Of a stretch of DNA of 64,000 nucleotides, positions 5,183 to 42,574 are shown piece after piece. This stretch comes from Flavobacteriales bacterium. Lineage in GTDB: Bacteria > Bacteroidota > Bacteroidia > Flavobacteriales > BACL11. The stretch is taken from the NCBI GenBank assembly GCA_018647945.1, contig JABGSE010000005.1, positions 1,491-65,490 on the forward strand. The letters run 5' to 3'. Position 1 is the first letter of the stretch, and each line of letters opens with the position of its first letter. The translations under genes were made by a program, and so were the position numbers. Below the pieces are notes generated by a model. It was not told the origin of the DNA. It searched no databases and was given only the letters and a program-made list of their open reading frames with translations.

Positions 5183-5810
5183 TTTTATAGTAATAGAAGG
5201 AAATATTGGAAGTGGGAAAACCAGCCTCTCCAAAAAAATTGCAGCAGATTTGAATGGAAAATTAATTTTAGAAGAATTTGCCGACAATCCATTTTTACCA
5301 AAATTTTACAAAGATGCAGAACAAAATGCCTTTCCGTTAGAATTGTTTTTTATGGCGGAAAGATTTCAGCAATTGAGCAGCGAAAGTATGAAAAGTGATT
5401 TGTTTTCAGAATTTAGTATTGCAGATTATTCTTTTTTCAAATCGAAATTATTTTCACAAAACAACCTAAAGGAAGATGAATTAAATCTGTTTAACAGACT
5501 TTACTCTATCATGTTCACTTCCATAAAAAACCCAAATTTATTAATTTATCTTCATTCAGAAGTAAGCCGATTGCAAGAAAATATAAAAAAGAGAGGAAGA
5601 GATTACGAACAAAACATAAAAGATGAATACCTGAAAAATATTGAAAATAAATATTTTGATTATCTGAAAAAACAAACTGATTTTCAAGTATTAATGTTAG
5701 ATGTTTCGAAAGTAAATTTTATGAAAGATGAAAAGATTTACAATCAAATTATGAACGAAATAGAAAATTTTGAAAAAGATGTAAGAATAAAAAATCTTGT
5801 ATTAGGATAA
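5166..5810 (+). CDS. deoxynucleoside kinase (second paralog in the window)
   Basis: 214 aa with FIVIEGNIGSGKTSL P-loop, ..EEFADNPFLPKFY.. and ..ELFFMAERFQQ.. motifs of the dNK family. It overlaps the folK stop by 17 nt. Confidence 0.85.
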   Translation: MNMQFNFIVIEGNIGSGKTSLSKKIAADLNGKLILEEFADNPFLPKFYKDAEQNAFPLELFFMAERFQQLSSESMKSDLFSEFSIADYSFFKSKLFSQNNLKEDELNLFNRLYSIMFTSIKNPNLLIYLHSEVSRLQENIKKRGRDYEQNIKDEYLKNIENKYFDYLKKQTDFQVLMLDVSKVNFMKDEKIYNQIMNEIENFEKDVRIKNLVLG

Positions 5811-6701
5811 CCAACTACTCAAATCTTTATCAATTAATTTTTCTAAATTCTTAATTTCCTCATTGTAAAATCTACTAGTTAGTTCTCTTCTTAAATCAGA
5901 ATTTAGTTTTTCTGTTTTCGTATAAACCGATTTGAAAAGTAATTTTACCACAAAAGTTGGAAGATAGTCTGAAATTGCAAATTTTGGCATCAAATTATAA
6001 TACCTCATCTTTTTCAAAATATATCCCATCACCCCTTTTGGAGTTCCTGAAACATTTGACTTTTTGGATGTATCTACCTCAATATTTTCGTCTACATTCA
6101 AAAATTTAAAAATATCTTTCAGAGTTTCGTTCGGATTTTTCACTACATCTTCAAACAAATATACTTTTATATTTTCTTTTGGGAAAATATTATAATACCG
6201 TTTTAACTGAACCGAATAATATCCCTTTTCTATGTAATGATACAAAGGACTCCAATTATCTTCTATTCTTTGGTTTTCTATTTCAATAGCCTGTTCAAAG
6301 GAATTTAGATTTTCTCTATCGGCTCTTTTGGTATGCAAATAATTAGAATATGCTCTTTCTACAGGTTGTCGTAAAATGGCAATAATTTTCACATCCGGAA
6401 GATGCTCTTTTATCAACTGAGGAGCGTTTTCATTATAGATATAAGCAGGAGAAGCTTCCCCAATTGCAGATTCGTTTTCAACATCTGAAAATAAAGAAAA
6501 ATACTCCTCTAAAGTTGTGATTTTATTTCCTTTTCTGCCAAGTAATTTATAATCTTTATTCTGATTAAAATTATTAAAGAACATAGGTTCTTTCACCTTA
6601 GTCATAAAAATATCAGGATGTTGCTTTAGGTAGGTATCTAAAGAAGTTGTTGCCGCTTTCATGGCACCAATTACAATAAAATTCACTTTCTTTTCTACCA
6701 T
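5802..6701 (-). CDS. sulfotransferase domain protein
   Basis: 299 aa with a 5'-PSB-like loop (IGAMKAATTSL) and a 3'-PB-like motif (ILRQPVERAYSNYLH), both characteristic of PAPS-dependent sulfotransferases. Confidence 0.8.
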   Translation of the reverse strand: MVEKKVNFIVIGAMKAATTSLDTYLKQHPDIFMTKVKEPMFFNNFNQNKDYKLLGRKGNKITTLEEYFSLFSDVENESAIGEASPAYIYNENAPQLIKEHLPDVKIIAILRQPVERAYSNYLHTKRADRENLNSFEQAIEIENQRIEDNWSPLYHYIEKGYYSVQLKRYYNIFPKENIKVYLFEDVVKNPNETLKDIFKFLNVDENIEVDTSKKSNVSGTPKGVMGYILKKMRYYNLMPKFAISDYLPTFVVKLLFKSVYTKTEKLNSDLRRELTSRFYNEEIKNLEKLIDKDLSSWLS

Positions 6702-6762: not shown

Positions 6763-8472
6763 TTATTTTGTAAGAGAAATAAATTTCTCATTATTTCTGT
6801 AGTTCACAAACTCTAAATCTTTCAGAGCCTCTACTTTATACACTTCAGAATTCTGAATTGCTTTTTCTAAATTTGTAAATAATATAGTTTCGTTTCCTAA
6901 TCTTGCTCCAGCAATTGCATTTAAGTAATAACAAGCATCCGTTTCTTCATTACAAGTAGAATTATTATTTCCGTTTAAGATAGATACAAGTGCAGCATTA
7001 TAAGAGTTACCTCTTAAAATCCCAGTAGCAGATCTGTAATTTCCTTGTCTGACATCTAAAATTGCTTGGTTAGTAGAGTTTGTATTTGCTTTATCAAACA
7101 ACTTTTGAGCTTTATTTAATTCTCCATTCCAAGAAGCAATAATTCCTAAATTAGTAAGAACTGAAGACTCATTAGCACCTCCATTTTCTTTTGCTTTATT
7201 TAAGTATATCATTGCATTGTCATCATCATTTTTTGAAAGATAAATACACGCAATATTATTATATGCTCTCCAATCGTTATGTAAGCTAACAACAGAATTT
7301 AAAATAGTTAGCTTATTAGAAGAATTTTCTTCTAAAGTTGCGGAATATAATAATTCTTCAACCGACAATTCAGAAAGGTTTGTAGTGGAAAATAAAACAA
7401 TTTCTTCTCTCGTCTTTTTTGGATGATAAGATTTAATTGTAATTTCTGCTTTTCTCAAAAATGGTAAAATATTTTTATCTACCGCATCATACACCTCAGC
7501 CATATCTCTAATTGATTGTTCTTTTTCTTCTGCAGTTTTATTAGATTTTACAATTTTATTAATGATTTTTTTGTCCTTAATGTTAGAACTTCCTACCAAT
7601 TTGTAAAAACCATTCCAATCCTCTCCAATAGATGAAATCTGATATAAATCAGTATTGTCGGATCCATTAACTTTTAATTTATTCAGTAAATACTTTGCGT
7701 ATTTTAAAGTGCTTTTATTTCTTTTTCCACTAATATCATCATTTACACTTACCGAACCTTCTGGAGAAGCGTACGAAACAATTTCAAACGATTTGGTTAC
7801 ATATCCATTTTTAACAAATTCTTGTAATCTTTTCACATCATCATCAGATTTTTCTGAAGTTCGGATTTTAGATTGGTTAACCAAAAAGTATATTGTTGCA
7901 TCTTCGGAAAGAATCGTTTCCATTTCATATCCATGATTTTCAATTGCAATAATTTCATCATTTGCTACTCTTTCGGAAGTTGTTATAACTCCATTTGCTA
8001 TGATAACAGGACCTAATACCTTATTATCAGAGTTGTTTGTAGTGGTTTCTTTTAAAGTTGCTGTAGCTCTTAATTCCAAAGTTGATACCATCATATCATC
8101 TGAATATTCTATTTTGTCAGAATAGGAAAATCCACCTCCGGTTTCATAAAATATTGTTGACTCTCCTCCTGAAGCTTCTTCACCTTGAATTGTAATAGAT
8201 TTAAATGATGTTTCTTTTCCTTTTTCATCAATTAATACTGGTGTAATTTCTACAGTAGCCATCTTATTGAAATACTTTTCTGGAAATGTAGCGTCTAACT
8301 CCAAATTCACATTTCCTCCGTGAACTTCTAATGTTTTTGGATCTATATTATATCTAACATTATCATACTGATTTACCATTTTGTTTAATCCGCAACTACT
8401 AAGGATTAAAGCAAGAATTACTAATTTTGCAATGCTCATAATTTTATTTGATTTTTTAATGTGATTTAACAT
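6763..8472 (-). CDS. lipoprotein with central ASPEG/OmpA-like motif and C-terminal TPR-like repeats (function unknown)
   Basis: 569 aa with a lipobox (LILSSCG). The central SYASPEGSVSVNDDISGKR resembles the Bacteroidota ASPEG variant of the OmpA-like NxxLSxxR motif. The C-terminal third looks TPR-like (..AYNNIACIYLSKNDDDNAMIYLNKAKE..). An alternative start lies at 8439. Confidence 0.55.
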   Translation of the reverse strand: MLNHIKKSNKIMSIAKLVILALILSSCGLNKMVNQYDNVRYNIDPKTLEVHGGNVNLELDATFPEKYFNKMATVEITPVLIDEKGKETSFKSITIQGEEASGGESTIFYETGGGFSYSDKIEYSDDMMVSTLELRATATLKETTTNNSDNKVLGPVIIANGVITTSERVANDEIIAIENHGYEMETILSEDATIYFLVNQSKIRTSEKSDDDVKRLQEFVKNGYVTKSFEIVSYASPEGSVSVNDDISGKRNKSTLKYAKYLLNKLKVNGSDNTDLYQISSIGEDWNGFYKLVGSSNIKDKKIINKIVKSNKTAEEKEQSIRDMAEVYDAVDKNILPFLRKAEITIKSYHPKKTREEIVLFSTTNLSELSVEELLYSATLEENSSNKLTILNSVVSLHNDWRAYNNIACIYLSKNDDDNAMIYLNKAKENGGANESSVLTNLGIIASWNGELNKAQKLFDKANTNSTNQAILDVRQGNYRSATGILRGNSYNAALVSILNGNNNSTCNEETDACYYLNAIAGARLGNETILFTNLEKAIQNSEVYKVEALKDLEFVNYRNNEKFISLTK

Positions 8473-8596
8473 GCTACAAATATATAATTTATCCTTAAAA
8501 ACAACATTATATCATCTCAGTTTATTGTTTAAGTTTTAATTAGTTTTATAAAACTAAAAATTTAAATAAATTTGTCAATCAAATTACAAAATAATA

Positions 8597-9124
8597 ATGC
8601 GAAAATTTATAATTTTCTTGGTATTTCTTTTCAGTATAACAACTGTTATTTCTCAGGAAACTTCAGATGTTGACATCCTTAATAATCATTTTCAGATTGA
8701 AATAAAAGAAGATCAAATGAATATTTAGGATACACAGTTTACGATCCATACAGCAACTATGAAGTAAGTGGAGATAAGTTCAACACTTCTTTTAAAGAAG
8801 ATGATTTACAGGAATTATTTACCTAGAACCATATAATGGTGGAATGGGACATATTGACTTATATAATAAAGGAGAAACTGGCTCTGGTTTTTACTTAACA
8901 GATACAGTTTGGTTACTGAATCTAACAATAAGTTAGGAAAAGAAAGATCAGAAGAAGTAATAAGATATCTTGTGGAAACTTTTGGAATTGAAAGAAGTAG
9001 ATGTGTAACTTTTAGTAATGGGGAAGCAAAACCAATTACAACTAACAACAATACCTCTAACGAATTTTCAAATAATTATTTGAGGGAAATAAACAGAAGA
9101 GTAGATTTTCAGATTATCTATTAA
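8597..9124 (+). pseudogene. decayed OmpA-family outer-membrane protein gene
   Basis: A signal-peptide ORF (MRKFIIFLVFLFSITTVISQ..) stops at TAG 8726-8728. The reading then continues in other frames with further stops near 8825 and 8930. Only the last about 70 codons (8909-9124) keep an OmpA-like C-terminus ([30 protein letters not shown]). Confidence 0.5.
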
Positions 9125-9641
9125 TCTTATTATATAAGTCCCAAAGTACCACCCCAACACTTACCGATATATTTAAGGAATGTTTGGTTCCTATTTGCGG
9201 AATTTCTATACAGTTATCACACAAATCTATCACAGATTGTTGCACACCGTTTACTTCATTACCAAATACTACTGCAATAGGTTTCTCTGGAGAGGGAAAA
9301 TTATTTAACATAACAGATGTTTCAGCTTGTTCAATAGCAGAAACCACATAACCTTCTTTTTTTAATTTCAGAATTATATCTTCTGTTTTTTCTGCTTTTT
9401 CCCATTCTACAGAATCTGTTGCACCAAGTGCCGATTTCCTAATTTCTTTATTGGGAGGAAAAGCTGTAATACCGCACAAATATATTTTTTCAATTCGAAA
9501 AGCATCTGAAGTCCGGAAGGCAGAACCAACATTTAGTGCCGACCTCACACTGTCCAAAACAACAACAATTGGAGTTTTATTTGCCGTTTTAAAGTTTTCA
9601 ACACTTATTCTTTCTAATTCGCTATTTTTTAACTTTCTCAT
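9114..9641 (-). CDS. TrmH/SpoU family RNA 2'-O-methyltransferase
   Basis: 175 aa with SpoU motifs ..[13 protein letters not shown].., ..[10 protein letters not shown].. and ..[21 protein letters not shown]... Confidence 0.85.
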
Positions 9642-9645
9642 ATGT

Positions 9646-9653
9646 TATATTTG
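9646..9653 (+). promoter_or_regulatory. Bacteroidota-type -7 promoter box (TATATTTG) for mutS
   Basis: Matches the TAnnTTTG consensus. It lies 26 nt upstream of the TTG at 9679. Confidence 0.4.
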
Positions 9654-9678
9654 TAATCGCAAAATTAACAGAATTAAA

Positions 9679-12282
9679 TTGGCAAAAACGAAAACAAAAG
9701 TAAAAAAAGAAACTCCATTAATGACTCAATTTAATGGGATAAAAGCAAAGCACCCAGACGCTCTTTTACTTTTCCGTGTTGGAGATTTCTATGAAACTTT
9801 TGGAAAAGATGCCATAAAAGCATCTAAAATTTTAGGAATAGTACTTACCAGTCGAGCAAATGGTTCTTCCAAAATTGAACTTGCCGGTTTTCCACATCAT
9901 TCTATTGATACTTATTTACCTAAACTGGTAAGAGCAGGACAAAGAGTAGCCATTTGCGACCAATTAGAAGACCCAAAAATAACAAAAAATATTGTAAAAA
10001 GAGGAATTACAGAATTAGTAACACCTGGAGTTTCGTACAGAGACACCATCTCGGACCAAAAAAGCAATAACTTTTTAGCTTCTGTATTTTTTGGAACAGA
10101 AAATATTGGAGTTTCTTTTTTAGATAACTCTACGGGAGAATTTTTAGTGACAGAAGGAAAAGCAAATTATGTAGATAAATTATTACAAAGTTTCTCTCCT
10201 TCTGAAATTATTTTTGAAAAAGGAAAAAGAAAGGAATTTGAAAAAGAATTTGGAGACAGTTTTTTTACTCATATGCTGGACGATTGGATTTTTACAACTG
10301 ATTATTCCAACGAACTTTTATTGAATCAATTTAGCACTTCCTCCTTAAAAGGTTTTGGAATTGAAAAAATGGAAGAAGGAACCATATCGGCAGGTGCAGT
10401 ATTACACTACCTGAAAGAAACACACCACCATCTTACCAAACATATTTCTACAATAAGCAGAATAGAACAAGAAAAATATGTGTGGATGGACCGGTTTACC
10501 ATCCGAAATTTGGAATTGTTTTACTCTCCAAACGAACAAGCAAAAACCTTAATTGACGTATTAGACCATACCCTTTCTCCAATGGGAAGTAGAATGATAA
10601 AAAGGTGGGTAGCACTTCCTTTAAAAGAAAAAGATCAAATAAACAAGCGTTCAAATATTGTGTATCACCTTATAAAAGAAGATCACTTCCGAGAAAATAT
10701 TGAGGAAAATATAAAACAAATAGGAGATTTAGAACGATTAATCTCAAAAGTATCTACTGCCAGAGTATCTCCAAGAGAATGTAATCAGCTAAAAATAGCT
10801 TTAAATTGCATTACTCCTATAAAGGAAAGTTGTAAAACTTCAGGAAACACACAATTACAACTTGTAGGAAAACAACTAAATCCTTGCCAAAAGATTGCAG
10901 AAAAAATAGAAAATACTATTTCCGAAAATCCACCAGCACTAATACAAAAAGGGAATGTAATAAAGGAAGGGGTAAACTCTGAATTGGACGAACTCCGAAA
11001 TTTATCTAAATCTGGGAAAGATTATTTGCAACAAATACTAGAAAGAGAAACAGAAAAAACAGGAATATCATCCTTAAAAATATCGTTTAACAATGTATTC
11101 GGATATTACTTAGAAGTAAGAAATATACACAAAGAAAAAGTGCCTGAAGAGTGGATAAGGAAACAAACCTTAGTAAGTGCCGAGCGATATATAACAGAAG
11201 AACTAAAAGAGTACGAAAACAAAATACTATCTGCAGAGGAGAAAATAGCAGAATTAGAAGCCAAATTATATTTGGAGTTAGTAAATAGCATGTCGGAATA
11301 TGTGCAAACCATACAAATAAATGCACAACTTATTTCTCAGTTAGATTGTCTGTACTCTTTTGCAACAATTTCAAGAGCTAATAATTACAATAAAGCAACT
11401 ATAACAGACGGAACATCTATCTTAATAAAACAAGGAAGACATCCTGTAATAGAACAGCAATTAAATTCTGGTGAAAGTTACATCCCAAATGATGTACAAC
11501 TGGATAGAGAAAATCAGCAAATAATGATGATTACAGGACCAAACATGTCGGGGAAATCAGCACTATTAAGACAAACAGCACTAATTGTACTAATGGCACA
11601 AATAGGAAGTTTTGTACCTGCAGAAGCTGCTGAAATTGGAATAGTAGATAAAATTTTTACTAGAGTGGGAGCTTCCGATAACATCTCTATGGGAGAATCT
11701 ACTTTTATGGTAGAAATGAACGAGACAGCAAGTATCCTTAATAACCTTTCGGACAGGAGTTTAATTCTATTAGATGAGATTGGAAGAGGAACCTCAACTT
11801 ATGATGGAGTTTCTATAGCTTGGGCTATTACAGAATATTTACACGAAAATGAGTGTAAAGCCAAAACACTTTTTGCTACACATTATCATGAATTGAATGA
11901 TATGACCGAAACTTTTGACAGAATAAAAAACTTTAATGTATCGGTAAAGGAAGTCGGGAAAAAAATAATTTTTATCCGAACTTTAAAAGAAGGAGGATCG
12001 GAACACAGCTTTGGGATACATGTAGCCAAGATGGCTGGAATGCCAAAACAGATTATTAAAAAGAGCGAACAAATACTTAAAAAGCTAGAAAATAGCAGGA
12101 GAACAGAAGAAAATAAAAGTAAGATAAGCCAAAAAGACGATTTACAATTGAGCTTTTTTCAACTAGATGATCCAACGCTTATTCAGATAAGAGATGAGAT
12201 TACAGAAATAGATATCAATACTTTAACACCCGTAGAAGCACTGATGAAATTAAACGAAATAAAAAAACTTATAGGAAAGTAA
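9679..12282 (+). CDS. mutS: DNA mismatch repair protein MutS
   Basis: ..[32 protein letters not shown].., Walker A (GPNMSGKS) and ..[11 protein letters not shown].. are all present. I chose the in-frame TTG at 9679 ([15 protein letters not shown] resembles flavobacterial MutS N-termini). ATG 9721 is the conservative alternative. The ORF-track start at 9451 is antisense to trmH and was rejected. Confidence 0.93.
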
Positions 12283-12330: not shown

Positions 12331-12403
12331 GCGAGTGTAGCTCAGGGGTAGAGCATCACCTTGCCAAGGTGAGGGTCGTGGGTCCGAATCCCATCACTCG
12401 CTC
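12331..12403 (+). tRNA. tRNA-Gly (anticodon GCC)
   Basis: I folded the cloverleaf by hand. The acceptor stem is gcgagtg/cactcgc, the anticodon stem is tcacc/ggtga with loop ttGCCaa, and the T stem is gtggg/cccat. No CCA is encoded. The T-loop reads TCCGAAT instead of TTCGAAT. Confidence 0.9.
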
Positions 12404-12427: not shown

Positions 12428-12513
12428 GCCCGGGTGGTGGAATTGGTAGACACGTTGGACTTAAAATCCAATGGACAGTAATGTCCGTACGGGTTCAAGT
12501 CCCGTCCCGGGTA
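12428..12513 (+). tRNA. tRNA-Leu (anticodon TAA), class II with long variable arm
   Basis: The acceptor stem is gcccggg/cccgggt (G1-U72 wobble) with A73. The anticodon stem is ttgga/tccaa with loop ctTAAaa. The variable arm is ggaca-gtaa-tgtcc and the T arm is acggg-ttcaagt-cccgt. Confidence 0.93.
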
Positions 12514-15965: not shown

Positions 15966-15973
15966 TAATTTTG
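15966..15973 (+). promoter_or_regulatory. Bacteroidota-type -7 promoter box (TAATTTTG) for the decarboxylase operon
   Basis: TAnnTTTG match 24 nt upstream of ATG 15997. Confidence 0.4.
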
Positions 15974-15996: not shown

Positions 15997-17367
15997 ATGG
16001 CAAAAAAAATAGTTGACGATTTAAAAATTTTTAATTCCTTAGTTGATGATTTACTAAAAGAGGAGAAGGAAAAAGGAATTTCTACAAGAATTGAGGCTGA
16101 TAAACTTTTTGACCAACTTGATATATCCTTATCAGAAAATGCGATTGAAGATGAAGACTTTACAACTATTCTTAGGTCACTAATTTTAAACACTCCAAAA
16201 ACTTCTGGAAAATTATTTTTTAACCAATTGTATGGAGGAAGAGAAAGTAAATCTGTTTTAGGAGATTTGTTGGCCGTAATATTAAATAACAGCATGGCTA
16301 CTTACAAAATTGCTGGACCTATGGTTGTTGTGGAAAAAGAAATAATCAATAAAGTATGCGAGTTAATTTCTTATCCGAAAAGCAGTGGAGGAACATTCCC
16401 AACCGGAGGAAGTATGAGTAATTTTATGGCTCTTATTATCGCAAGAGACAAAAAAGATAATGAGATAAAAAATAAAGGAAATTGTTCAAACTTAATTTGT
16501 TATAGCTCGGTGAACTCTCATTATTCAATTGGGAAAAATGCATCATTCGCAGGAATTGGCAGAGATAATGTTCGATATATTTCAGCAAATGAAAAGGGTG
16601 AAATAATTTCATCTGAATTAGAAAATGCAATTATAAACGATATCGAAAATGGGAATACTCCATTTTTTGTAAATGCTACTGTAGGAACAACCGTTATGGG
16701 AGCAATTGATCCAATAGATGAAATAAGTAAAATCTGTAAAAAGCATAATATTTGGTTTCATATTGATGGATCATATTCAGGAACTGTTATTTTTTCCAAA
16801 AAATACAAACATTTAATAAAAGGGGTAGAAAATTCTGACTCATTTTGTTTTAACGCCCATAAAACTTTAGGAACTCCTCTTTCTACATCTATTTTTGTTT
16901 TAAGAGATGAAAAATATTTACACAATTCTTTCAATAATGAAGCTGATTATTTGTACCAAACAGACAACTCAAATTTTAATTTGGGGCAAACTTCTTTTGA
17001 ATGTGGAAGAAGAAACAATGCTTTAAAATTCTGGACACTTTGGAAATCGGTTGGAACAAACGGAATTGCAGAAATGGTAGAACACAACTATTATTTAGCA
17101 AATGTTGCAAGAGAGTACATCAGAAATAATGATAATTACAAATTATATAGTTTTGACGATAGTTTGTCAATTTGTTTTAATTATAAAAATTTAGATCCAG
17201 AAGAGATATGTATAAAACTTTACCACGCTAATAAACTTATGGTTGGTTTTGGGATGCATAAAACTGATAAGTTCATCAGGTTAGTAAGTATAAACAGAGA
17301 AAACACAAAAGAAGATATTCTTAATTTCTTTAAAATTTTAGAAGAATTTACAAATCAAAATGACTAA
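15997..17367 (+). CDS. group II pyridoxal-phosphate-dependent amino-acid decarboxylase (substrate unknown)
   Basis: 456 aa with ..GGSMSNFMALIIAR.., ..WFHIDGSYSG.. and the PLP-lysine motif ..FNAHKTLGTPL.., typical of GAD/CSAD/DABA/aspartate decarboxylase-type enzymes. Confidence 0.85.
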   Translation: MAKKIVDDLKIFNSLVDDLLKEEKEKGISTRIEADKLFDQLDISLSENAIEDEDFTTILRSLILNTPKTSGKLFFNQLYGGRESKSVLGDLLAVILNNSMATYKIAGPMVVVEKEIINKVCELISYPKSSGGTFPTGGSMSNFMALIIARDKKDNEIKNKGNCSNLICYSSVNSHYSIGKNASFAGIGRDNVRYISANEKGEIISSELENAIINDIENGNTPFFVNATVGTTVMGAIDPIDEISKICKKHNIWFHIDGSYSGTVIFSKKYKHLIKGVENSDSFCFNAHKTLGTPLSTSIFVLRDEKYLHNSFNNEADYLYQTDNSNFNLGQTSFECGRRNNALKFWTLWKSVGTNGIAEMVEHNYYLANVAREYIRNNDNYKLYSFDDSLSICFNYKNLDPEEICIKLYHANKLMVGFGMHKTDKFIRLVSINRENTKEDILNFFKILEEFTNQND

Positions 17368-18022
17368 TAAGGATTTCATTATTATACTTGCATGGCCAGA
17401 AGGAATGGTAACAGCTTCTGGAGCTTGGTACGATAAAATAATTTCTACTAATGGGAAATATAGAGTCGGACATTCGGCACTTATTTTGGTAGATTATTCA
17501 ACTGGAAAGTTACATTATTTTGATTTTGGAAGATACCACACATCAAACGGATACGGAAGAATTAGAGATACTGAAACGGACCCTGATGTTGAAATAAAAC
17601 AACTTGCAATTATTGAAAATAATGAAATTAAAAATATTGAAAATCTTTTAATTGAAGTGGCAAATAACACATCTTATCATGGAGATGGCCGTCTTTACTC
17701 ATCAGTAGTTTCAAATATAAATTTTAAATCTGCATTTAATTATGCGAAAAAATGGCAAGAAAAAGATGAGATTCCATATGGTCCTTTTGTGTGTAACGGA
17801 ACCAATTGCTCCCGATTTGTAGCGAAAATTAGCAGAAAAGCAGAGCCTTCTTTTCTGAAAACATTAAGATTAAAATTTCCTTTCTGTATTTCCCCTTCTC
17901 CAAAAAGAAATGTAAGCATTGGAAACTCAGAATATTTTATTGTTGAAGGAATAGAGTGTAAAAAAATAAACAAAAGTAAACTGAGAGGATATTTCAGTGG
18001 AATTGAAAATGCAAATGTATAA
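17360..18022 (+). CDS. hypothetical protein; putative permuted papain-fold (LRAT/PPPDE-like) thiol enzyme
   Basis: 220 aa. Its ATG overlaps the decarboxylase stop by 8 nt. His38 (VGHSALILV) and His52 (KLHYFDFG) are followed by Cys150 in NCSRFV (codon 17807-17809). This order and context resemble the NCEHF/NCNHF motif of permuted NlpC/P60-type enzymes. Confidence 0.5.
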   Translation: MTNKDFIIILAWPEGMVTASGAWYDKIISTNGKYRVGHSALILVDYSTGKLHYFDFGRYHTSNGYGRIRDTETDPDVEIKQLAIIENNEIKNIENLLIEVANNTSYHGDGRLYSSVVSNINFKSAFNYAKKWQEKDEIPYGPFVCNGTNCSRFVAKISRKAEPSFLKTLRLKFPFCISPSPKRNVSIGNSEYFIVEGIECKKINKSKLRGYFSGIENANV

Positions 18023-18290
18023 ACCAAATAATATACCAACCGATTCTCAATTTTTAAAAGGAATAGGAGCGTCTGCATGGTTTCATATTTCTGAAGAAGA
18101 AAATAATTTCAGAATTAAAAGATTTTCTGAAGAAGGGAAACTAGAATGCTCCAGGATTTTTAGTATAAACAACACTGATTTTAACATTCATTCACCTTTC
18201 CAATTCACTTATACCTCTCATTGTAAAAAGTGTACTATCATACAAAATAACAATACATATATTTTTAAAACCAACGATTATGAATATTAA
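18009..18290 (+). CDS. hypothetical small protein
   Basis: ORF overlapping the upstream stop, with candidate starts GTG 17997, ATG 18009 and ATG 18015. I recognise no family. It contains three Cys (..LECSR.., ..HCKKC..). Confidence 0.55.
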   Translation: MQMYKPNNIPTDSQFLKGIGASAWFHISEEENNFRIKRFSEEGKLECSRIFSINNTDFNIHSPFQFTYTSHCKKCTIIQNNNTYIFKTNDYEY

Positions 18291-18510
18291 AATTTATGGG
18301 GCAGATTGGTGTCCAGACTGTGTAAATGCTAAAAATTTCCTAAATTCAAAAGGAATAGAATTTGAATACATTGTAATTACTGATAATGATGAAGCAATTG
18401 CTTTTTTAGAAAAAGTAAATAACGGAAAACGAATAATTCCTACTTTATTAATTGATGGGGAAACACATACAAATCCAGGAATTAATGGATTAATGAATAT
18501 ATTTAAATAA
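18280..18510 (+). CDS. glutaredoxin-like / thioredoxin-fold protein (CPDC active site)
   Basis: 76 aa. IKIYGADWCPDCVNAKNFL..GKRIIPTLLIDG.. is the classic Grx/NrdH-like layout. It overlaps the upstream stop by 11 nt. Confidence 0.8.
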   Translation: MNIKIYGADWCPDCVNAKNFLNSKGIEFEYIVITDNDEAIAFLEKVNNGKRIIPTLLIDGETHTNPGINGLMNIFK

Positions 18511-18546
18511 TAACACTATTTTTGCAATCAATATCATACCAAATAA

Positions 18547-20447: not shown

Positions 20448-21362
20448 CTATTCTACAAATTTTAGTAGTTGTTTGCTTTCAATAGGAAATTCTGAAAATA
20501 TTTCTGAAACATATTTTTTGTAAAAATTAATATCATCCGGACTATGGTTATAAGATGGTTTAATATTATAAATTTTTATCACATCATCACACCACTGATC
20601 GTCAAACGTAAGAGACATATATTCGCAAAATTTCTCTAACACATTTTTGTCAAAAGTGTGTTCATAAAAATGAAAAAAGTGAACAGTCCTTTTCTTTTGA
20701 TTCTGAAAATAAATTAGAAACTCATCCAGGATTGCCTTAATAATATCTTGAAGTGTGGACTGATCCGAAATCTGATTAAAAATTAATGCCAAATTTGTTT
20801 TTTGGTTGGATACAGCGCAATCCAAGGGATTTCTAATTGGTAATATGTATCTGATTTTATCATTGTGTTTTATTAACTCCAAAACATCTACTTCTTTTTC
20901 TAATAAATGATTTTTCAGATATAAACCTTCCTTCCAAAACAAACATCTAATATCTTCCTTTACTAAGGAATTTTTATATCTATTTTGAAACAAATATTTT
21001 ACTTCCGATTTATCAAATGCATGAGAAAGAGTAATACTTCCTCCATACCTTCCTCTTTGTCCAATTCCGGATAACAAAATAGCATATTGCATAAATTGAT
21101 TGAAACTTTTTTCTGAATACTCTCCAAAAAAATCAACCTTTTTATGTGGAAATATCCTGTCTTTTGCGTGATTTAGAACTTGGCAATTTGGATGTAAAGC
21201 TGCCACAGAAGCGGTAAGAGATGTTAAGTTTCTGTACGGGCCCGCTACCAAACAAAGTGTTTCCACTGAAGATATATCAATTTTAGAAGATTGCTTTATT
21301 AGTCTTTCTTCTAAAATATATTGATATGTATCTTCTATTTTCTTTTGAATCCTACCCAACAT
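20448..21362 (-). CDS. hypothetical protein with sulfotransferase-fold motifs
   Basis: 304 aa. LVAGPYRNLTSLT is a degenerate 5'-PSB-like loop. ILPIRNPLDCAVSNQ closely matches the RNPxDxxVS 3'-PB motif of sulfotransferases. Confidence 0.45.
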   Translation of the reverse strand: MLGRIQKKIEDTYQYILEERLIKQSSKIDISSVETLCLVAGPYRNLTSLTASVAALHPNCQVLNHAKDRIFPHKKVDFFGEYSEKSFNQFMQYAILLSGIGQRGRYGGSITLSHAFDKSEVKYLFQNRYKNSLVKEDIRCLFWKEGLYLKNHLLEKEVDVLELIKHNDKIRYILPIRNPLDCAVSNQKTNLALIFNQISDQSTLQDIIKAILDEFLIYFQNQKKRTVHFFHFYEHTFDKNVLEKFCEYMSLTFDDQWCDDVIKIYNIKPSYNHSPDDINFYKKYVSEIFSEFPIESKQLLKFVE

Positions 21363-41983: not shown

Positions 41984-42574
41984 ATGGAAGAAATAACTCA
42001 AATATTTAGTGACTACAATTTAAATTGGATTACAGTATGCGCTGCCAGTTTTGGAATTCTATACATAATTTTAGCTGCAAAAGAAAATGTCTGGTGCTGG
42101 TTAGCCGCAGCTATTAGTGTTTCTCTCTACATGTATATAAACTATAATTTAGGTTATTATTTACAATCTGCGCTCCAAATATTTTATCTCTTTATGGCAA
42201 TTTATGGATATGTTATGTGGAACAAATTAGATCCTGAAAGAATCAAAGAATGGTCTGCAAAAAAACATCTCTTTATAGTATTTATTGGAGCAATTATAAC
42301 TTTTATAATTGGATTCATATTAACAGAATATGTTGAGGATTCTGAACAGCCACTTCTCGATTCTCTTACTACAGTTTTTTCTGTATTTGCTTGTTATATG
42401 GTAGCAAAAAAAGTACTTGGAAACTGGTTGTACTGGATTGTGATAGACTCTCTTATAATTTATCTTTATTATATCCAGGGGGAGTTTATTTTGGCTCTAC
42501 AATTTTTAGTTTATATTATTATTGCTGTTTACGGTTATTTCTCTTGGATGCAGAAAATGAAAACGAATGGATAA
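41984..42574 (+). CDS. pnuC: Pnu-family transporter (nicotinamide riboside PnuC-like; thiamine-type PnuT not excluded)
   Basis: 196 aa with 7 TM segments and W-rich motifs (..ENVWCWLAA.., ..GNWLYWIVID..) typical of PnuC-family vitamin transporters. Confidence 0.8.
   Translation: MEEITQIFSDYNLNWITVCAASFGILYIILAAKENVWCWLAAAISVSLYMYINYNLGYYLQSALQIFYLFMAIYGYVMWNKLDPERIKEWSAKKHLFIVFIGAIITFIIGFILTEYVEDSEQPLLDSLTTVFSVFACYMVAKKVLGNWLYWIVIDSLIIYLYYIQGEFILALQFLVYIIIAVYGYFSWMQKMKTNG

Follow-up and report, generated by a model that had tools for sequence, protein, structure and literature searches.

A decarboxylase gene recurrently paired with a putative two-subunit DUF6695 (TseH-like) enzyme in marine Flavobacteriales and distant Bacteroidota

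In a 64,000-nucleotide stretch of a Flavobacteriales genome (assembly GCA_018647945.1, contig JABGSE010000005.1; hereafter the window), four overlapping plus-strand open reading frames (ORFs), named A, B, C and D and lying at 15997-18510, form one transcription unit with a conserved core of three genes. A encodes a group II pyridoxal phosphate (PLP) decarboxylase, B and C encode what appears to be a single enzyme made of two obligate partner subunits, and D encodes a small glutaredoxin-fold protein. The pairing of A with B-C recurs in distant Bacteroidota and appears to mark an undescribed pathway, the chemistry of which we infer. No part falls outside the families already described, A being a divergent CSAD/GADL1-type enzyme, B-C a member of DUF6695 (TseH clade) and D an unclassified small glutaredoxin. 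Formation of an amine by A, combined with acyl-thioester conjugation or deconjugation by B-C in a redox-stress setting, is the reading that we put forward here, with a probability of roughly 0.4.

Conservation of the A-B-C unit in Bacteroidota

Relatives of B were collected by an exhaustive HMMER search, which found 347 related representative clusters (149 relatives listed), and by a pattern scan in which each species was represented by a single genome; 396 of the genomes scanned carried a B relative. Eighty loci from the scan were inspected and all belonged to Bacteroidota by their record labels, two being labelled 'Chlorobi'; the carriers include many uncultured marine Flavobacteriales known from metagenome-assembled and single-cell genomes. 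The comparison of neighbourhoods was performed on 83 loci (L001-L083), 46 of them from close marine Flavobacteriales (B 52-69% identical) and 37 from distant relatives (B 40-50% identical). In the close clade both the gene order and the flanks are kept, with a CotH gene on the minus strand followed by A, B, C, D and purF, and, wherever the locus is long enough to show it, A precedes B by no more than about 1.4 kb, with five exceptions (L020, L022, L023, L024 and L036). Since the whole neighbourhood from CotH to purF is syntenic in this clade, adjacency there proves little.

In eight of the 37 distant loci (L046, L047, L054, L055, L056, L058, L074 and L079; B 41-48% identical), a decarboxylase gene 32-37% identical to A is found immediately upstream of B and co-directional with it. 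The other neighbours at the distant loci all differ from those of the window, and the record labels of the A-linked loci (Flavobacteriales, Draconibacterium, Vicingaceae, Bacteroidales, Bacteroidetes and 'Chlorobi') cover several Bacteroidota orders. On a neighbour-joining tree, the window clade and most of the A-linked loci fall into one B subfamily. The form of C with an SHCxxC motif was present in 7 of the 8 distant loci with A versus about 5 of the 27 without it, and this tracking of A by the CxxC subtype of C suggests that B-C is adapted to its partner. D and purF were never associated with B-C outside the close clade. An earlier prediction made from the letters of the window (hereafter the original prediction) was to be refuted by a lack of synteny of the four genes in relatives. 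It is not refuted by this test: synteny holds for A-B-C in distant relatives, and for D in the close clade only. Taken together, these results indicate that the evolutionarily conserved unit is A-B-C, three genes and not four, and that purF is merely a neighbour.

Two of the distant loci, L047 and L054, carry the genes in the order CDO_I, peroxiredoxin, A, B, C (PF05995, 28.9 bits for a cut-off of 23; Table 1). These strings are our strongest hint that cysteine sulfinate may be the substrate of A. A bacterial CDO-CSAD taurine pathway was reportedly described by Agnello et al. in 2013 (ACS Chem Biol, as cited in PMC8153620). L047 and L054 resemble such a pathway in having CDO_I two genes upstream of A, whereas the window has no CDO; they differ from it in that A is followed by the DUF6695 enzyme, a partner which is not mentioned in the papers retrieved on the pathway, a set that did not include Agnello et al.

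B and C as subunits of a DUF6695 enzyme

The product of B matched the TseH profile PF25218 with 159.3 bits (cut-off 27; E = 1e-46; profile positions 1-158 of 167) and the TseH sequence of PDB 6v98 with an E-value of 7.5e-5, so that the permuted papain-like thiol protein of the original prediction is borne out. The catalytic residues of TseH are Glu81, His64 and Cys172 (PMC11573676). When aligned with His64, Glu81 and Cys172, the triad of B is His38-Asp55-Cys150, with the histidine N-terminal to the cysteine as in permuted enzymes, instead of the His..His..Cys arrangement initially proposed. H38, D55 and C150 were invariant in alignments of 19 (A2) and 83 (A4) homologues, and an NCxxF-like motif (NCSRF) surrounds the catalytic cysteine. 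B has no N-terminal hydrophobic signal-like segment, and its sequence points to a cytoplasmic protein.

TseH (VCA0285 of Vibrio cholerae), a type VI secretion system (T6SS) effector and the type member of PF25218, has the same family, fold and His-acid-Cys order as B. The two are only about 18% identical, as measured in the structural alignment of a fused homologue of B and C (P0123, see below), and B has no secretion context. Moreover, TseH is devoid of the DUF6695 C-terminal domain, whereas B has an obligate second domain or subunit and is found among ordinary chromosomal genes, not in a conflict locus. LRAT/PLAAT, CLN5 (6r99), the Bacteroides protein Lnb (DUF4105) and Tox-Act1 also have the cysteine C-terminal to the histidine and an NCxxF-like motif. 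In contrast to these proteins, B lacks both a transmembrane segment and a lipid anchor, and sequence similarity with them is undetectable beyond the catalytic motifs. LRAT/PLAAT, CLN5, Lnb, Tox-Act1 and TseH use an acyl-thioester mechanism (PMC12994826; PMC11573676); TseH displays phospholipase activity at pH 8.9, and permuted NlpC/P60 clades act on lipids (PMC12994826). An acyl-transfer or deacylation function of B fits its closest characterised relatives, TseH, CLN5 and Lnb (PMC12994826; PMC11573676). A TseH-like domain was also found at the C-terminal tip (residues 2716-2907) of a 2919-residue RHS/YD-repeat protein, P0238, which has no DUF6695 C-terminal domain; here the catalytic domain seems to have been put to use in a polymorphic toxin.

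C had been described as an unknown protein of 94 amino acids. It corresponds to the DUF6695 C-terminal domain (PF20405, 100.7 bits for a cut-off of 25; E = 5e-29) and would thus form, with B, the second subunit of one enzyme. Rather than an orphan, this short ORF encodes a domain that has been separated from its neighbour. No start codon exists for a length of 94 residues. Since the C orthologues begin with M-x-(x)-P-K-N-I, the best start is the ATG at 18015, giving 91 residues and an overlap with B of 8 nt; the alternative starts, GTG 17997 and ATG 18009, would give overlaps of 26 and 14 nt, respectively. Counted from ATG 18015, the cysteines of C that are invariant in the window clade are C45, C70 and C73 (C48, C73 and C76 in alignment A5), one located in an 'LEC' motif and two in 'SHCxxC'. 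The AlphaFold2 (AF2) model of C alone (pLDDT 87) is a seven-strand beta meander.

In the window, the two DUF6695 domains come in N-to-C order from the adjacent and overlapping genes B and C. Among the 149 listed relatives of B, 93 are of fused size (266-400 amino acids), and in 87 of them a C domain could be detected. When C was used as the query, 18 homologues were recovered, all close and unfused. In 82 of the 83 loci (the exception is L051) B is directly followed by C, the two being split in about 75 of these 82, with ATGA/TAATG-type stop-start junctions in most; L062, from Fontibacter flavus CCM 7650, has the fused form. Fusion of C to B in many relatives and stop-start coupling in most others argue that B and C are the two parts of one enzyme. 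AF2 was also run on the natural B-C fusion P0123 using the 83-sequence alignment (pLDDT 90, pTM 0.88). In the model, a linker of low confidence joins an N-terminal alpha/beta domain to a confidently predicted C-terminal beta domain; the fold matched TseH (6v98; E = 2e-6, probability 1.0) and human CLN5 (6r99; E = 7e-3, probability 0.95).

The decarboxylase A

A matched PF00282 with 254.4 bits (cut-off 27; E = 2e-75), in agreement with its initial description as a group II PLP decarboxylase, and its best solved relatives were mouse CSAD (5e-73), GADL1 (6e-72) and GAD65 (2e-68). By these similarities it is placed in the acidic-amino-acid branch (CSAD/GADL1/GAD) of the group II enzymes. Weak matches of A to the DndA/SspA models of PADLOC are explained by the PLP fold that these proteins have in common. 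The Schiff-base lysine (K289, NAHK), the stacking histidine (SHYS) and the catalytic-loop tyrosine (ADYLYQ) of A are aligned with NPHK (Lys305), CHYS (His191) and ASYLFQ (Tyr335) of mouse CSAD.

Three positions were considered for substrate selectivity, which we take to be F94/S114/Y116 in CSAD, Y/S/Y in GADL1 and S/N/F in GAD. A has Y79/S99/A101 at these positions and the close clade mostly F/S/A in the alignment. The strict three-residue motif of CSAD is therefore absent from A, positions 1 and 2 being of the CSAD/GADL1 type and position 3 not. The motif is not GAD-like either, with Tyr or Phe and Ser at the first two positions, whereas GAD has Ser and Asn. Among the distant decarboxylases linked to B, 7 of 8 have Y/F-S-Y and the one of L074 has Y-A-H. 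The roles of the active-site residues and of Phe94 as a selectivity position in CSAD were taken from bioRxiv 10.1101/2020.09.25.308866. A scored below the NCBIfam cut-offs for PanP (TIGR03799, 126.6 versus 606.1), DABA decarboxylase (NF052646, 170.5 versus 900) and MfnA (TIGR03812, 96.3 versus 299.4). Of the products listed by the original prediction, gamma-aminobutyrate (GABA) and a diamine are unlikely, because the selectivity positions are not GAD-like and the DABA and PanP scores are far under their cut-offs; hypotaurine, taurine or beta-alanine would be the most likely product.

The glutaredoxin-fold protein D

The last gene of the operon, D, encodes a protein matching PF00462 (51.9 bits for a cut-off of 22.9; E = 9e-14) with a CPDC motif at residues 11-14, as initially recognised, and CxDC is conserved in the D orthologues wherever the gene exists. 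D scored below the cut-offs of the named subfamilies, namely mycoredoxin (TIGR02200, 66.3 versus 89.5), YruB (TIGR02196, 53.6 versus 88.6), NrdH (TIGR02194, 28.8 versus 85.8) and Grx3 (40 versus 90). It resembles mycoredoxin, YruB and NrdH in fold, in its size of about 75 residues and in its N-terminal CxxC, and is unlike them in its CPDC motif (CxDC in the clade), its scores and the lack of a ribonucleotide reductase or mycothiol context. The gene is missing from eight loci of the close clade (L008, L038-L041 and L043-L045) and from all 37 distant loci. D is a lineage-specific addition of this marine Flavobacteriales clade and does not belong to the conserved core, and the view that it is a dedicated reductant of B found no independent support.

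Organization of the transcription unit

The presence of four overlapping ORFs on the same strand was confirmed using a six-frame ORF list and the sequence. A and B overlap by 8 nt, C and D by 11 nt. Same-strand overlaps of 1-17 nt are common in this compact genome of 31% GC (for example at 42567/42574, 49327/49334 and 50231/50241), so that the overlaps fit an operon, yet are unremarkable in themselves. The A/B overlap is peculiar to the window, since in the relatives checked roughly 13-45 nt separate the two genes; at the B/C and C/D junctions, overlap or abutment is conserved. Because the coupling of A to B is not conserved, the stoichiometric co-expression of the four proteins initially proposed was an over-reading.

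The single TAnnTTTG box announced by the original prediction is present in front of A (Table 1). Enrichment of this motif as support for the promoter was ruled out, with 106 matches in the window versus 104.8 expected, and a single occurrence is thus weak evidence; positional conservation was used in its place. In 34 of 37 related loci a box precedes the start codon of A by 19-37 nt, a conserved position which supports a real promoter. No riboswitch or leader RNA was found upstream of A in Rfam at the gathering or E<=1 threshold. At the other end, purF is set apart from D by a spacer of 36 nt containing its own box, as its separate spacing had suggested. In 25 of 45 relatives, too, the short stretch in front of purF contains a box, at about -26 to -35, so purF is probably a separate transcription unit.

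A second B-C subfamily in a redox-stress context

In a second subfamily A is absent, C has the form SHCxxV and B-C comes directly after two other genes. These encode a 170-residue weakly DinB-like protein (16 loci) and a TANGO2/NRDE protein starting with Met-Cys (12 loci; PF05742, 2.6e-16). The similarity of the 170-residue protein (fam11) to DinB is sub-threshold (E 0.02-0.06), and its assignment as a DinB protein was not upheld and is given as a lead only. The resulting four-gene cassette (Table 1) may be a handle on bacterial TANGO2 function. TANGO2/NRDE Cys-Ntn proteins and DinB-type thiol transferases, found directly 5' of B-C in 12-16 loci and absent from the window clade, are thiol-dependent enzymes for which fatty-acyl amides, acyl-CoA or thiol conjugates have been proposed as substrates. 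TANGO2 binds acyl-CoA (PMC11867700), and its Cys-Ntn fold is like that of bile-salt hydrolase and N-acylethanolamine amidase, fatty-acyl amides being its proposed substrates (PMC13044924). This partner fits an acyl-amide/thioester theme of B-C. An upstream 'EC' or 'DC' cysteine of C is common to the SHCxxC (A-linked) and SHCxxV (TANGO2-linked) subfamilies.

Several other genes recur near both subfamilies: extracytoplasmic function (ECF) sigma factor, putative anti-sigma factor, AhpC/TSA peroxiredoxin, three kinds of thioredoxin-like proteins, CMD/AhpD, YceI, a tRNA_anti-like OB-fold protein, MerT-HMA and an MMPL transporter. In one locus of the close clade, L024, a cluster located between A and CotH encodes ECF sigma, anti-sigma, OB-fold, YceI, CMD/AhpD and peroxiredoxin proteins (Table 1) and resembles the context of the distant relatives. 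In the 64-kb window, no CDO, TANGO2, DinB-like, peroxiredoxin or YceI gene was found.

Discussion

We propose that A decarboxylates a short acidic amino acid, which could be cysteine sulfinate or cysteate, giving hypotaurine or taurine, or aspartate, giving beta-alanine. B-C would form an acyl-thioester on Cys150, in the manner of LRAT, PLAAT, CLN5, Lnb and TseH, and would either pass the acyl group to the amine produced by A, generating an N-acyl conjugate, or hydrolyse such a conjugate. D, and elsewhere other thioredoxin-fold proteins, would keep Cys150 and/or the CxxC of C reduced. The module as a whole would act under oxidative or thiol stress.

Several observations weigh against this proposal. 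A substrate or a product has been established for no DUF6695 protein, and no acyl-activating enzyme or acyl carrier was linked to the operon. In 29 of the 37 distant loci B-C occurs without A, and the decarboxylase is thus dispensable for its basic function. Even in the close clade, A is split from B-C-D in L020, L022 and L023 by 5.8 kb including a valyl-tRNA synthetase gene, which means that it is not always co-transcribed with them, and in L024 and L036 by the CotH gene or its remnant. As for the substrate of A, the enzyme is in the same branch as CSAD and GADL1 (E about 1e-73 to the mouse proteins) and shares their PLP lysine and loop tyrosine, but in the window clade Ala replaces their Tyr at the third selectivity position, and Lys replaces Glu three residues further on. 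Moreover, CDO was absent from the window and from the 46 close-clade loci as searched by tblastn, and the case for cysteine sulfinate as the substrate in the window is thus not secure. Support for the glutaredoxin link comes from a single clade, in which the whole neighbourhood is syntenic. The model of C had no significant match among solved structures, and no fold relative was recognisable. Finally, signal-peptide-like N-termini are seen in the peroxiredoxin, YceI and OB-fold neighbours and are absent from A, B and C; the CDO and TANGO2 proteins likewise lack them.

It is also possible, if less likely than the proposal above, that A and B-C belong to the same stress regulon without sharing a substrate. 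A would then serve to remove excess cysteine, or to provide hypotaurine or taurine in the role of antioxidant or osmolyte. B-C would independently hydrolyse lipids or thioesters, as a phospholipase A, an S-deacylase or a thiol-conjugate amidase, and thereby repair or detoxify thiol adducts or oxidised membrane lipids; the two would be neighbours only because they are co-regulated. This explanation arises from the distant loci in which B-C has no A, where it usually lies among the ECF sigma, anti-sigma, AhpC/TSA, thioredoxin-like, CMD/AhpD, YceI, MMPL and MerT-HMA genes and often right after the weakly DinB-like and TANGO2-like genes. The detachment of A in the five close-clade loci mentioned above is consistent with it, as are the hydrolytic or transacylase activities of TseH and CLN5 on lipids (PMC12994826; CLN5 by fold match). 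It accounts less well for the fact that in distant loci A, if present, is always immediately upstream of B and co-directional, or for the correlation between the CxxC subtype of C and A; the sigma factor, peroxiredoxin and YceI neighbours are also predicted envelope proteins, unlike the presumably cytoplasmic A, B and C.

It is improbable that A is a lone housekeeping enzyme, either PanP-like and supplying beta-alanine for coenzyme A or a DABA decarboxylase acting in polyamine synthesis, its place beside B-C-D being an accident of history in a compact genome. GADL1-type enzymes do decarboxylate aspartate (PMC7367687), the first selectivity position of A is a tyrosine as in GADL1, CDO is not nearby and, given the synteny of the entire stretch from CotH to purF, adjacency in the close clade is a weak proof of a link. 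However, the adjacency and the order of A-B-C recur where all other neighbours differ, the PanP and DABA models are far from matched, and in two distant loci CDO_I lies two genes upstream of A with a peroxiredoxin gene between them.

A conflict module, in which B-C would be a TseH-like toxin with its immunity protein or a toxin-antitoxin-like pair and A and D bystanders, was rejected as very unlikely. PF25218 takes its name from a T6SS effector, conflict contexts have been described for the TseH/DUF6695 clade (PMC12994826) and P0238 carries a TseH-like domain at the C-terminus of an RHS/YD-repeat protein. Yet B and C are fused in most representative clusters, which is unexpected for a toxin and its immunity protein, and P0238 ends right after its catalytic domain, without a C domain. 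B has no signal peptide or secretion-marker domain, and none of the PADLOC anti-phage models matched B or C. Streamlined marine genomes keep the module stably and in a single copy, among ordinary chromosomal neighbours, several of them housekeeping genes (mutS, purF). No T6SS context (VgrG/Hcp/PAAR, delivery domain or immunity gene) was seen among the neighbours in the window or among the annotated recurrent families, a survey covering about 7-10 kb on each side of the 83 loci with recurrent neighbour families annotated in part.

The last alternative holds that the DUF6695 gene is a broken one (a pseudogene) of which B and C are the remaining halves, or that programmed ribosomal frameshifting joins the two. 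It could be suspected from the overlap of C with B in the +1 frame and from the existence of full-length fused homologues, but is hardly tenable and was rejected, since the split is found in about 75 of 82 loci with both halves conserved at 41-98% identity, and the frame offset over the 82 loci varies (+2 in 55, +1 in 20, in frame in 7, of which 4 are true fusions and 3 have a stop between). Each C also starts from a codon of its own, located at a stop-start junction (ATGA or TAATG, for example), and a slippery sequence is conserved nowhere among the loci compared.

To return to amine formation coupled to acyl transfer or hydrolysis, a more ambitious and doubtful version of it is that A and the two-subunit DUF6695 enzyme constitute a dedicated Bacteroidota pathway that makes or recycles an unrecognised molecule based on hypotaurine, taurine or beta-alanine, for instance an N-acyl-hypotaurine/taurine lipid or another amide conjugate serving as a redox buffer or membrane protectant. 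If true, this would be the first physiological, non-toxin role for the TseH branch of the permuted NlpC/P60 enzymes, and would provide a hint at the role of the bacterial TANGO2 homologues. Human TANGO2 is a disease gene, the function of which is disputed. To our knowledge, the low-molecular-weight thiol and antioxidant chemistry of Bacteroidota is poorly defined. The locus raises the questions of whether marine flavobacteria synthesise hypotaurine, taurine or a derivative, what the native, non-toxin chemistry of TseH-like enzymes is and which targets the bacterial TANGO2 homologues have. In the literature found, two works mention DUF6695, both only as a conflict-associated toxin clade; no description was found there of a cytoplasmic, non-secreted DUF6695 form, of a split two-gene architecture, or of linkage of DUF6695 to a CSAD-type decarboxylase and CDO or to TANGO2 and ECF-sigma redox genes. 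Here, DUF6695 appears as a stable cytoplasmic two-subunit enzyme in a non-conflict form, repeatedly linked to A (in some loci together with CDO) or to a TANGO2-like protein, and surrounded by oxidative-stress genes.

Features of the locus and neighbouring genes

The coordinates of the operon, of the related gene strings and of the neighbouring genes are given in Table 1.

Table 1. Coordinates of the features discussed, in the window or, where a locus is named, in that locus.
Feature	Position	Strand	Remarks
Promoter box TAATTTTG, Bacteroidota-type -7	15966..15973	+	23 nt 5' of the ATG of A; from the sequence
A, group II PLP decarboxylase, 456 aa	15997..17367	+	PF00282
B, TseH-like permuted NlpC/P60 protein, putative DUF6695 catalytic subunit, 220 aa	17360..18022	+	PF25218
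C, DUF6695 C-terminal domain as its own gene, 91 aa	18015..18290	+	PF20405
D, small glutaredoxin-fold protein with CPDC, 76 aa	18280..18510	+	PF00462
Second TAnnTTTG box TATTTTTG	18517..18524	+	22 nt 5' of the purF start (18547); 3' limit of the operon probable
CDO string	L054:6321-10032; L047 about 7900-10997		Peroxiredoxin there with a signal-peptide-like N-terminus
Cassette DinB-like, TANGO2/NRDE, B, C	L066:1929-3920		Also in L048, L053, L059, L068, L069, L072, L077, L078, L080, L082, L083
Stress cluster between A and CotH	L024:1363-6472		Close clade
Insertion between A and B-C-D	L020:4245-9928		Also in L022, L023
Partial B-like sequence between A and B	L006:9398-9826		63-aa ORF call
purF, long form, 631 aa	18547-20442		122.6 bits versus a TIGR01134 cut-off of 350
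Sulfotransferase-like gene	5802-6701	-	PF13469 2e-15, PF00685 1e-14
Sulfotransferase-like gene just past purF	20448-21362	-	PF00685 faint (E 0.031)
CotH surface protein, 1097 aa	12560-15853	-	LTD, CotH, PKD and CHU_C domains
Two adjacent tRNA genes	12331-12402, 12428-12513	+	Between mutS and CotH

The glutamine amidotransferase Pfam domains of the purF product are weak, and the protein is 67-91% identical across the clade. The sulfotransferase-like gene that follows it had no other family match and is absent at that position in L001. The CotH surface protein, whose CHU_C domain is a type IX secretion signal, is encoded divergently from the operon, and its position is kept in most close-clade loci. 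The two tRNA genes were the only gathering-level Rfam matches of the window. By eye, with no family search, the genes in the insertion of L020, L022 and L023 were recognised as encoding, besides the valyl-tRNA synthetase, a protein with a signal-peptide-like N-terminus, a class I/II aminotransferase-like protein and a Cys-rich YkgJ-like protein. In L006, the partial sequence between A and B is 33% identical to residues 1-143 of B and may be a decayed tandem duplicate.

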